Source: Escherichia coli O127:H6 str. E2348/69
GTDB taxonomy: Bacteria > Pseudomonadota > Gammaproteobacteria > Enterobacterales > Enterobacteriaceae
Assembly: GCF_000026545.1 (NCBI RefSeq)
Contig: NC_011601.1
Length of the DNA stretch: 64,000 bases
Direction: 5' to 3' (one strand)
This document shows, piece after piece, positions 18,371 through 21,063 of the stretch (position 1 is the stretch's first letter; every line of letters begins with the position of its first letter). The notes below the pieces were generated by a model. It searched no databases. It was not told the DNA's origin and worked only from the letters and a program-made list of their open reading frames with translations. The translations under genes were made by a program, and so were the position numbers.

Positions 18371-19081
18371 AAATGCGCCTATAAGGCTCTCTTACCAGCC
18401 GCGCCCTAACAGGCGCACACGATCTGACATTTGCATCCAACTTCGTTACTTACGGCCCGTAAACGGGCTGCCCGGATAGGGAATCGATAACTGCTCTCCC
18501 ATTTTATCCTCTTCAAGCTGGTGCTTTATGTAATCCTGTATCTTCGCCGTGTTCTTACCCACCGTATCGACGTAATACCCTCTGCACCAGAACTCCCTGT
18601 TCCTGTACTTGAATTTCAAATCACCAAACTGCTCGTAAAGCATCAGACTGCTTTTCCCTTTCAGATATCCCATAAAGCCGGATACGCTCATTTTGGGCGG
18701 GATCTCCACAAGCATATGGATATGATCTGCACAGCATTCAGCTTCCAGAATCCGTACACTTTTCCACTCACACAGCTTTCTCAAAATACAGCCTATTGCT
18801 CTACGCTTCTCTCTGTAGAACACCTGTCTTCGGTATTTTGGCGCAAATACTATGTGATATTTACAGTTCCATCGGGTGTGCGCTAAGCTCTTTTCGTTCC
18901 CCATTGGGACCCCCTTTTGATTTCTTGTTTGACACTTGCAGTTGCCAGACCGCAAGGTGTTTTAACAAATCAAAAGGGGTTTTAATAACTGGCTCAAAGC
19001 TGAAAGCTTTCCGGAACCCCCAGCCTAGCTGGGGGTTTTCTGTGCACAAAAATGGATGGTGCTAATTGCACCATCCCCTTT
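18371..19081 (-). mobile_element. IS200 insertion sequence (IS200/IS605 family); boundaries approximate, about +/-20 bp
   Basis: About 0.7 kb carrying a single Y1-transposase gene, with the two left-end hairpins typical of IS200 (19054..19077 and 19015..19037); fills an add-ydgJ spacer that is short in K-12 as I recall. Confidence 0.8.
18446..18904 (-). CDS. tnpA: IS200 transposase TnpA (HUH/Y1 family)
   Basis: 152 aa from MGNEKSLAHTRWNCKYHIVFAPKYRR...HIHMLVEIPPK; closely resembles Salmonella IS200 TnpA; the ORF track gives a longer 169-aa frame. Confidence 0.9.
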   Translation of the reverse strand: MGNEKSLAHTRWNCKYHIVFAPKYRRQVFYREKRRAIGCILRKLCEWKSVRILEAECCADHIHMLVEIPPKMSVSGFMGYLKGKSSLMLYEQFGDLKFKYRNREFWCRGYYVDTVGKNTAKIQDYIKHQLEEDKMGEQLSIPYPGSPFTGRK

Positions 19082-20122
19082 TCACGCAAGGCACAAAGTC
19101 ACGCGATGTTTGGCGGATTCGATGCCCAGCTCAATCAACTCCATTACCTGGATTGCCTGACTTGCCGGAACCGGATTTTCACCATCGCCATTTAACGCAT
19201 CACGAATAGCCGCATAGTAAGCCGGATAATTCCCCGGCACTGTCAACAGCGTTTCTTCGACACGTTCCTCACCTTCCACGCGGGTAAGTACGCCATCACG
19301 CATATCGTAGCCCCAGTCTTCCTGCGGCAGACGCTCGCCATTTTTCAGACGTTCTTCCTGTGGATCGAGGCCATATTTCACATAACTGCCTCGGGATCCA
19401 TGCACGATATACCGTGCTGACTCGGCTGCTGCCAGCATGGTGCCGTGTAAAATCACTCGCCGCTGCGGATAGGACAAGATAGCGTGGAAATAATCGGTCG
19501 ACTGCGCTCCGGGCCGTAACTGTGCCAAATCTACCGTCATGCTAACCGGTAAACCAAATAACGTAATGACCTGATCAAGAAGGTGCGGTGCTAAATCGTA
19601 CCAGATACCGCTGCCTGGGCCGCCCTGTTCACGCCAACGATCGCGCACCTGCGGACGGAAGCGGTCAAAATGGGACTCAAAGTAAGCAATTTCCCCCAGC
19701 ACGCCTTCCGCGAGCAAACCTTTTAGCGTCAGGAAATCGCTATCCCAGCGACGGTTATGGAATACAGACAGCACTCGCCCCAGGCTTTTTGCCAGCGCTT
19801 CCAGCTCTCGTGCTTGTGACAGTGTCACGGTAAAGGGTTTATCAACGACCACATGTTTACCCGCCTCAAGCGCCGCTTTGGCTAACGGAAAATGGGTATC
19901 GTTGGGTGTAGGAATGACAATCAGGTCTATGTTGGGATCGTTAAACAGATGCTTCGGCTCAGAGACAACCGTAACCGTTGGCCAGTCAGCTTTTACTTTT
20001 GTTTCATCGCTGCTGGAGATTACCGCCAGCTCCAGCCCGGGCGTGCCCGCAATCAGGGGCGCATGGAAGGTTTTGCTCGCATAACCATACCCAATCAACC
20101 CAACACGGATGTTGTCGCTCAT
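19082..20122 (-). CDS. ydgJ: predicted NAD(P)-dependent oxidoreductase (Gfo/Idh/MocA family)
   Basis: ORF track gives 359 aa; recognised N-terminus MSDNIRVGLIGYGYASK at 20122 (346 aa). Confidence 0.9.
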   Translation of the reverse strand: MSDNIRVGLIGYGYASKTFHAPLIAGTPGLELAVISSSDETKVKADWPTVTVVSEPKHLFNDPNIDLIVIPTPNDTHFPLAKAALEAGKHVVVDKPFTVTLSQARELEALAKSLGRVLSVFHNRRWDSDFLTLKGLLAEGVLGEIAYFESHFDRFRPQVRDRWREQGGPGSGIWYDLAPHLLDQVITLFGLPVSMTVDLAQLRPGAQSTDYFHAILSYPQRRVILHGTMLAAAESARYIVHGSRGSYVKYGLDPQEERLKNGERLPQEDWGYDMRDGVLTRVEGEERVEETLLTVPGNYPAYYAAIRDALNGDGENPVPASQAIQVMELIELGIESAKHRVTLCLA

Positions 20123-20364
20123 GTCATTGCCTCTCATTGAAGTATGATGGCTATTTGACACTATCCTTTACCCTCGCTCAACAGTTTAATAACCTGCCAG
20201 CAATAAGGGATGTTGTTTAACTTAAGTCAAAAAAATAGCGATTTTTCCAACGACAAAAGCTAAATATTGCAAAAACCTCAGTAAAAATCTTGCTGGAGCT
20301 ATTATTGCTAAGTAACATTTACCCCCTGAAGTTAATGGATCAATCAACAGAGATGTGGGCTGTA

Positions 20365-20490
20365 ATGAATCGTCTTATTGAATTAACAGGTTGGATCGTT
20401 CTTGTCGTTTCAGTCGTTCTTCTTGGCGTGGCGAGTCACATTGACAACTATCAGCCACCTGAACAGAGTACTACAGTACAACACAAGTAA
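20365..20490 (+). CDS. blr: small membrane protein Blr (41 aa)
   Basis: MNRLIELTGWIVLVVSVVLLGVASHIDNYQPPEQ... inside the larger ORF 20290..20490. Confidence 0.8.
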   Translation: MNRLIELTGWIVLVVSVVLLGVASHIDNYQPPEQSTTVQHK

Positions 20491-20762
20491 GCTCTGCACT
20501 TGTTGAGCGACATGCTGCCCGTCCGGGTGCATGTTTTCACTTGTCGGATATTAAACCAGGAATTTATTATCTTGTTCGATGTTGTTGATGATTGTCAGGG
20601 ATAGTAAAGCGCGTTACTCTTTCCAGAGCAGTTTTTCATCCCTGAATATTTGCCATCAGCACATTCTTATTATTGTAATAACACAAGCATTCACTTTTGG
20701 TGAAATTTTATCATCACTAATAATACCTACCCCTTTGGTATTAATTATTTTATGGACCTTTT

Positions 20763-20978
20763 ATGACTGTTCAGGACTACTTATTAAAATTTCGCAAAAT
20801 CAGTTCACTCGAAAGTCTGGAAAAACTCTACGACCATCTTAATTACACCCTGACGGACGATCAGGAACTGATCAATATGTATCGTGCTGCCGATCACCGT
20901 CGCGCAGAGCTGGTTTCTGGCGGGCGTTTGTTTGACCTCGGCCAGGTACCGAAGTCCGTCTGGCACTATGTCCAGTAA
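20763..20978 (+). CDS. cnu: Hha/YmoA-family H-NS modulator Cnu (YdgT)
   Basis: 71-aa ORF, recognised sequence, AT-rich upstream region. Confidence 0.92.
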
Positions 20979-21063
20979 AGAAAGTAGCGATCGGTTATAA
21001 AAGCCTTATAATAACGCCCCTAAAATTAGATTTGTCTGTTTGCGCCGCTATTCTGGAGAACCT

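Follow-up and report, generated by a model that had tools for sequence, protein, structure and literature searches.

Two adjacent hairpins 3′ of ydgJ in Escherichia coli E2348/69: a putative host terminator beside the left end of an IS200C insertion

Introduction

In Escherichia coli O127:H6 strain E2348/69 the convergent genes add and ydgJ are separated by a copy of the insertion sequence (IS) IS200C, and on the side of the element that faces ydgJ there are two hairpins in close succession. The locus was analysed within a stretch of 64,000 nucleotides of contig NC_011601.1, referred to here as the window, which is 100% identical to E2348/69 and for which RefSeq lists add on the plus strand and IS200C tnpA and ydgJ on the minus strand. 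Both host genes are supported by the list of open reading frames (ORFs) as well as by RefSeq. The coding sequence of add (adenosine deaminase) occupies 17333..18334 on the plus strand and ends in the stop codon TAA at 18332-18334, while that of ydgJ (an oxidoreductase of 346 amino acids) occupies 19082..20122 on the minus strand, its stop codon TGA being the complement of 19082-19084. IS200C fills 18338..19048 between them, also on the minus strand.

Inspection of the sequence of 17700-20400, combined with an inverted-repeat search, gave two perfect hairpins, both on the 3′ side of ydgJ when its coding (minus) strand is read. The hairpin further from ydgJ, at 19015..19037 (AACCCCCAGC-cta-GCTGGGGGTT), has perfect arms of 10 bp and corresponds to nt 12-34 of IS200. 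The nearer one, at 19054..19076 (GGATGGTGC-taatt-GCACCATCC), has a 9-bp stem with 6 GC pairs and a loop of 5 nt, and is prolonged by A/T arms over 19048-19082. Five nucleotides (19077-19081) separate the ydgJ TGA from the nearer stem and 16 nt separate the two hairpins. The pattern at 19015-19037 has an expected count of 0.00 in the shuffled window and the RNA folds of the hairpin region have z scores of -4.9 to -5.1, so that neither hairpin is a chance feature. A preliminary description of this DNA had already noted both; the coordinates it gave for 19015..19037 were exact, while the second hairpin ends at 19076 and not at 19077.

Our interpretation, to which we assign a probability of roughly 0.9, is that these are two different terminators that were juxtaposed by a typical IS200 insertion, the one at 19015-19037 belonging to the left end of the element and the one at 19054-19076 to the host.

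The hairpin next to ydgJ and the empty site

The hairpin at 19054-19076 is found at the uninterrupted site of both K-12 and the near relative KSEC38, neither of which carries the IS. In K-12 the add-ydgJ intergenic region is only 33 nt long and consists almost entirely of the hairpin: it reads TAA-caaaATGGATGGTGCaaatGCACCATCCAtttt-tCA, that is, TAA-CAAA-ATGGATGGTGC-aaat-GCACCATCCAT-TTTT-CA. The empty site of KSEC38 reads TAACAAAAATGGATGGTGCTAATTGCACCATCCCCTTTTCA, with the hairpin and the ydgJ-side flank identical to those of the window, and at the insertion point TAACAAAAATGG of KSEC38 corresponds to TAACAA[IS]AAAATGG of E2348/69. To place the site in the species, a query of 121 nt spanning the KSEC38 site was searched against 5426 complete E. 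coli genomes, with a match defined as at least 80% of the query length. The uninterrupted site is present in 5299 of these genomes, at a median of one place per genome, and every full-length match listed falls between add and ydgJ.

These comparisons bear directly on the earlier proposal that both hairpins are IS200 left-end structures, that the IS lies at the ydgJ stop codon with its hairpin now serving as the ydgJ terminator, and that the last codons of ydgJ had perhaps been altered. An IS200 is indeed present, its left-end hairpin is a known terminator, and no more than 16 nt lie between the two hairpins. For 19015-19037 the attribution is correct, as this hairpin falls at IS200 nt 12-34 and within the STnc490 match described below. 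The hairpin at 19054-19076, however, is host DNA: it is found in K-12, KSEC38 and the 5299 genomes without the IS at this site, whereas other IS200C copies cease to match at about 19048-19052. No other IS200 copy has this hairpin, and the empty sites are therefore not excision scars that have kept IS sequence. The length, stop and last codons of ydgJ are unchanged save for one single-nucleotide polymorphism (SNP) 53 nt from the junction, and comparison of the ydgJ 3′ end with K-12, in which the stop-proximal hairpin and the same stop codon are both found, refutes the proposal as far as that hairpin is concerned. A common origin of both hairpins in IS200 is therefore very improbable.

It is even less probable that 19054-19076 is not a terminator specific to this locus but a dispersed repeat, for instance a miniature or REP-like element, or flanking DNA that travelled with the IS. 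REPs are hairpins that are targeted by some insertion sequences (PMC3333891). The empty-site query is nevertheless single-copy and sits between add and ydgJ in every full-length match listed, the hairpins found at the left ends of other IS200C copies are different ones, and the hairpin at 19054-19076 is flanked on both sides by the A and T runs that are typical of a bidirectional terminator.

The sequence features of an intrinsic terminator are all present at 19054-19076, namely a GC-rich stem, a short loop and a 3′ U-tract located just past a stop codon. Because an A run and a T run flank it, the structure reads as a stem followed by a U-tract in both directions, the tails being AUUUUU on the ydgJ strand and CCUUUU on the add strand. 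A terminator scan flags 19076-19054 on the minus strand (tail ATTTTT, 5 nt past the TGA), while the add-strand CCTTTT fails the 5-T rule of the scan. The hairpin folds with -20 to -25 kcal/mol and z scores of -3 to -5. We therefore regard 19054-19076 as the predicted native bidirectional Rho-independent terminator of the convergent add/ydgJ pair and not as IS DNA. Several loop and tail haplotypes of this terminator exist among E. coli strains: the add-side tail is CCTTTT in the lineage of E2348/69 and KSEC38 and ATTTTT in K-12, and the loop is TAATT as opposed to AAAT in K-12. In that lineage the native terminator may be a weaker one for add, regardless of the IS.

Anatomy of the IS200C element

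The ends of IS200C were placed by comparing the filled site with the empty sites of K-12 and KSEC38 and with two junction classes of other strains. The filled site equals the empty site plus 711 bp, without target duplication and with homopolymer ambiguity only, and other IS200C copies match up to the ends placed here. On the tnpA-sense strand the element runs 5′-TGTGCACAG...GGAGGATATTTAT-3′; the two ends are mutually unrelated and there are no terminal inverted repeats. According to Ellis et al. (PMC4513863) the terminator hairpin of IS200 occupies nt 12-34, and the hairpin at 19015-19037 therefore puts IS nt 1 at 19048. At the insertion point the A run that is left over at 19049..19052, which is the T-tract on the ydgJ strand, exceeds, when the A residues at 18336-18337 are counted with it, the A5 run of the empty site by one A.

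A difference of one base in the length of the A run at the IS junction (window 18336-18338 / 19048-19052) also distinguishes E2348/69 from ST80 and XJ6.1 from EC6868, pairs that otherwise match. The extra A could be due to homopolymer slippage, variable cleavage or an assembly error, and because of this polymorphism the length of the IS can be read as 711 or 712 bp.

The only gene of the element is tnpA (18446..18904, minus strand), which encodes an intact 152-residue Y1 (HUH, single-tyrosine) transposase, annotated by RefSeq as 'IS200C family transposase'. The product matches the Pfam profile Y1_Tnp (PF01797) over positions 2-121 of 121 with 128.7 bits (E 1.7e-37), and apart from antisense overlap the ORF list contains no second long ORF in 18338-19048. 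Upstream of tnpA lies the art200/STnc490 antisense RNA region (18914..19037, minus strand), where Rfam model RF01405 (STnc490) matches over its full length from 19037 to 18914 with 146.4 bits (gathering threshold 56; E 3.9e-31). This match is on the tnpA-sense strand, while STnc490/art200 is described as antisense to the tnpA 5′ untranslated region (UTR) (PMC4513863); what the Rfam model describes seems to be the left-end structure of the sense strand, unless the model is ambiguous as to strand.

At the right end a perfect hairpin at 18346..18364 (CCTCCGGC-ata-GCCGGAGG) is followed on the plus strand by TTTTT at 18365-18369 and forms, on the minus strand, the tnpA-distal hairpin of the element, with the tail ATATTTAT; as other copies have it too, it belongs to the IS. 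The inverted-repeat search also gave an interrupted palindrome at 18374..18417 (TGCGCCTATAAGG ... CCTAACAGGCGCA), which is a candidate for TnpA binding. The Rfam scan covered 17000-21000 at a permissive threshold and returned, besides STnc490, only the Yersinia small RNA Ysr202 at 18297-18369, with 28 bits against a gathering threshold of 315. The similarity is confined to the terminal hairpin and the match was rejected as chance. It covers the IS200 right-end hairpin and T-run, and Ysr202 could end in an IS1541 right end, or the likeness could be fortuitous. A promoter scan of 18200-19300 found no sigma-70-like site, so that an outward promoter of the IS acting on ydgJ or add is unsupported.

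This copy is 98-99% identical to other E. coli IS200C copies and 87% identical to IS1541. It has a Y1 gene as its sole gene, neither inverted repeats nor a target duplication, subterminal hairpins at both ends and an STnc490-type stem-loop in the 5′UTR; its left end lies 3′ of a short conserved T-rich target, with the top strand on the lagging-strand template. As it has every feature of the IS200 group of the IS200/IS605 family that can be tested on sequence, we classify it as a member of that group.

Consequences for ydgJ and add

The coding sequence of ydgJ is intact. K-12 and the window agree in the length of the protein, 346 amino acids, and in the TGA that follows, the last residues being HRATLCLA in the former and HRVTLCLA in the latter. 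There are five substitutions relative to K-12, of which the only C-terminal one is A341V, caused by a G to A SNP at 19101, 53 nt from the insertion point. The SNP is absent from K-12, from KSEC38 and from the sister strain ST80, which has the same insertion, and is unrelated to it; the suggestion that the insertion had changed the last codons of ydgJ is refuted.

Nor would ydgJ need the IS hairpin to terminate. Filled and empty sites agree in the 8 nt past the native stem (ATTTTTGT), and the gene keeps its length, its stop codon and its own hairpin with the AUUUUUGU tail. Since its own hairpin and the next 8 nt are unchanged, ydgJ would be independent of the IS hairpin for termination, contrary to the role that the preliminary description had given to the latter. 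Transcripts of ydgJ would end at their own hairpin and AUUUUUGU, and the left-end hairpin of the IS, lying 16 nt beyond, would be at most a back-up terminator for ydgJ, its chief effect presumably being to insulate tnpA from ydgJ read-through.

Such an insulating function fits what experiments have documented for IS200, where tnpA is protected against transcription from outside by the terminator in the left-end hairpin (PMC4513863, PMC5435999). This terminator is Rho-independent, works in both directions and stops about 85% of the transcripts that reach it (PMC5435999). On this point, as on the presence of an IS200 with its left end towards ydgJ, which the STnc490 match and the hairpin at nt 12-34 bear out, the preliminary description stands. 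The left-end hairpin at 19015-19037 was not flagged by the terminator scan. Its plus-strand tail, TTTTCTGT, is canonical if the A:T pairs are left out of the stem, and judged from sequence alone it would be weaker on the ydgJ/tnpA strand than the native terminator.

In one other genome the surroundings may differ. Strain 98192 (NZ_CP173596.1, about 4506161-4506966) has both the add end and the IS200 left-end junction, but only the first 111 of the 131 query positions are matched and the annotation shows no ydgJ at the match; beside the IS, ydgJ may have been truncated or rearranged further in this strain.

The gene whose 3′ end appears to have been rewired by the insertion is add and not ydgJ. 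The IS parts add from the native terminator, and the right-end hairpin at 18346-18364 begins 11 nt past the add stop codon. The scan finds this hairpin terminator-like on both strands, and it folds with -16.5 kcal/mol (z -3.05). Transcripts of add would now end at the right-end hairpin and its UUUUU, which would act as a replacement terminator. Plus-strand read-through past this point would meet the IS left-end hairpin and then the native hairpin before entering ydgJ in antisense. Termination of add at the IS right end is the sole plausible regulatory change at the locus, the importance of which is small given that ydgJ is untouched and keeps its own terminator; the gain lies in a corrected annotation of hairpin ownership and of the ends of the IS.

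Some points weigh against the reading of the locus as two terminators set side by side. Termination at either hairpin in E2348/69 is deduced from sequence and from work on Salmonella IS200. The left-end hairpin has the tail UUCCGG on the ydgJ/tnpA strand, which is not a U-tract, and its efficiency in that direction is taken from the cited experiments. The service of the native terminator to add before the insertion is uncertain, CCUUUU being weaker than the AUUUUU of K-12. The boundaries of the IS are ambiguous by 1-3 nt, as they fall within an A/T run, and the block in E2348/69 measures 712 bp, one A more than the difference between filled and empty sites predicts.

Route of insertion and recurrence at the site

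On the ydgJ-sense strand the junction reads ...GCACCATCC-ATTTT/TGTGCACAGAAAACCCCCAGC..., the slash marking the start of the IS. The junction follows ATTTT, and therefore the element entered at the end of the terminator T-tract; this entry just behind the native T-tract is the reason that the IS left-end hairpin lies 16 nt behind that of the host. The GC skew of the plus strand of the window is -0.033, and on this basis both the target T-tract and the top strand of the IS are assigned to the lagging-strand template. The same placement of the top strand on the lagging-strand template is the family rule, known from IS608 and ISDra2. IS200C, with tnpA on the ydgJ strand, would thus have come in by 'peel and paste', the single-strand route that the IS200/IS605 family uses, entering directly 3′ of the terminator T-tract on the ydgJ-sense strand, the lagging-strand template, without target duplication.

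An IS-ydgJ junction is present in 22-23 of the 5426 genomes and falls at two insertion points that are 2 nt apart. The junction follows ...CCATCCATTTT in E2348/69, ST80, EC6868, XJ6.1 and SC418 (class A) and ...CCATCCATTTTGT in A30 and Ec-2939. As the insertion points differ, a single ancestral insertion for all 22-23 carriers was rejected between the two classes, and the add/ydgJ terminator has, to judge from these junctions, been hit at least twice independently in E. coli. Flank haplotypes also differ within the ...CCATCCATTTT class, and the IS of SC418 is only 95.8% identical to the E2348/69 copy. Class A alone may still derive from one ancestral insertion, because elements of the IS200/IS605 family excise precisely.

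Placement of IS200-group copies behind terminators

To compare this site with those of other copies, the arms of the left-end hairpin were searched for as an exact pattern, with each species represented by a single genome. They occur in at least 120 contig stretches, and the taxa are diverse, including Yersinia pestis (IS1541), Vibrio, Dickeya, Brenneria, Mailhella/Desulfovibrio, metagenome-assembled genomes (MAGs) of Bacillota and Ruminococcus, Enterococcus and others. This set together with eight E. coli IS200C copies from other loci gave 118 unique left-end junctions, each of which was scored as terminator-like if the 35 nt upstream contained a hairpin with a minimum free energy (MFE) of -10 kcal/mol or lower and the last 6 nt contained at least 4 T. 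A stricter perfect-stem rule used earlier, by which 59 of the 118 junctions and 9 of 2000 random positions scored, was replaced by the MFE criterion because stems with bulges are missed by it.

A hairpin and T-tract are present at the left end in 98 of the 118 junctions (83%), compared with 8 of 3000 random positions in the same loci. The mean MFE of the 35 nt upstream is -16.7 kcal/mol for the junctions and -5.5 for random windows of 35 nt. A stable hairpin occurs in the 35 nt upstream of 6.1% of random positions that follow at least 5 T in 6, and of 7.4% of T-tract ends outside ORFs. At positions -4 to -1 before the IS, T is found in 93%, 85%, 66% (with G in 14%) and 92% of the 118 junctions. 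All 8 of the E. coli IS200C copies checked, that of E2348/69 included, lie just behind the hairpin and T-run of a co-oriented gene, the genes concerned being dsbA, carB, an ldr toxin gene, plaP, ugd, gndA, a hypothetical gene and ydgJ; one of the copies from other loci has no listed junction. In Y. pestis NCTC5923 copies of IS1541 are arranged head to tail with a spacing of 710 bp, and the left end of one directly follows the right-end hairpin of the other (CCTCCGGCtatGCCGGAGG-ATAT), so that the IS1541 right end itself appears to behave as a target of the terminator type.

The arms AACCCCCAGC/GCTGGGGGTT are kept exactly in Enterobacterales, Vibrio, Desulfovibrionaceae (Mailhella), Oxalobacter, Enterococcus, Bacillota, Ruminococcus MAGs and Saccharibacteria MAGs, while outside the arms these elements fall to 65-80% identity. 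Such exact conservation suggests that the hairpin is under strong constraint, through TnpA binding and its function as a terminator, or that the elements have recently spread by horizontal transfer.

If IS200 works as IS608 does, the A-rich stretch GAAAA on the 5′ side of the left-end hairpin foot would select TT(T/G)T as target. The right end, which likewise ends in TTAT, would be handled in the same way. The terminator hairpin would then expose or mark the target in single-stranded DNA, or simply make the insertion harmless.

The last of these possibilities leads to a purely selective account, in which IS200 enters any T-rich site and only the copies behind terminators survive, being harmless and shielded from transcription. 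Sites close to terminators, past convergent or terminal genes, are plausibly neutral, and a preprint of 2025-26 (10.1101/2025.07.22.666184) sees upstream terminators as favouring the persistence of IS copies. All of our data come from fixed copies and not from de novo events, and selection against harmful insertions could by itself produce a preference for terminators. The positioning is, however, precise to the nucleotide, with T at -4, -3 and -1 in 85-93% of junctions, and the copies examined are co-oriented with the terminator. A hairpin is found at 7.4% of ORF-free T-tract ends as against 83% of IS sites, the add/ydgJ terminator has received two or more insertions, with entry points separated by 2 nt, and the Y. 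pestis copies enter behind the right-end hairpin of another copy. On balance we consider selection alone an unlikely, though by no means negligible, explanation.

Some enzymatic contribution to the terminator preference is favoured because of this nucleotide precision, the approximately 12-fold excess over ORF-free T-tracts and the recurrent hits. The stronger proposal, that IS200-group transposases recognise the terminator structure of hairpin and T-tract in single-stranded DNA, rather than a T-rich tetranucleotide alone, and that host terminators are recurrent attachment sites of which add/ydgJ is one hot spot, is one that we would neither back nor discount, the odds being about even. If it is true, the element would routinely swap the terminator of a gene for its own right-end hairpin, as at add. 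The choice between structure-directed targeting and selection is a question for the whole family and is not specific to the add/ydgJ site. The site illustrates a general rule, namely that IS200-group elements lie with nucleotide precision behind host intrinsic terminators across very distant bacteria. The rule helps to delimit IS200 ends and to predict hot spots, and warns against assigning a host terminator to the element.

Comparison with known systems

The insertion described here is typical; nothing at the site is new in kind and the placement pattern is already known. Odaert et al. (J Bacteriol, 1998) reportedly suggested that stem-loops resembling terminators are hot spots for IS1541. 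A statistical association of IS200-family elements with upstream terminator-like sequences has been described (preprint 10.1101/2025.07.22.666184), and the IS1541 copy between pheL and pheA in Yersinia (PMC3082878) fits the terminator rule. Beyond the statistics of that preprint and the pheL-pheA::IS1541 example (PMC3082878), our literature searches gave nothing explicit on terminator targeting by IS200.

Compared with IS200 of Salmonella, IS200C of E. coli and IS1541 of Yersinia, the element shows no essential difference. It shares with them a length of about 710 bp, tnpA as the only gene, the left-end hairpin at nt 12-34, the STnc490 stem-loop and the right-end hairpin, as well as the lack of inverted terminal repeats and of a target duplication and a left end that adjoins a T-rich target just past a terminator of the host; the junction in E2348/69 merely has one extra A relative to its sister strains. 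The host hairpin resembles the bidirectional intrinsic terminators of other convergent genes in that a single GC-rich hairpin with an A run and a T run lies between the stop codons of add and ydgJ. It differs from them in that the add-side tail is degraded to CCUUUU here, and that the IS parts add from the hairpin, which would now serve ydgJ only. With IS608 and ISDra2 the element has in common its entry on the 3′ side of a short target lying against the left end, the use of the lagging-strand template and the absence of duplication, and GAAAA is a candidate guide for TT(T/G)T, although guide-target pairing in IS200 is inferred by analogy. The difference from IS608 is that the latter recognises TTAC without requiring a neighbouring hairpin, while 83-90% of IS200-group copies have a host hairpin ahead of the target.

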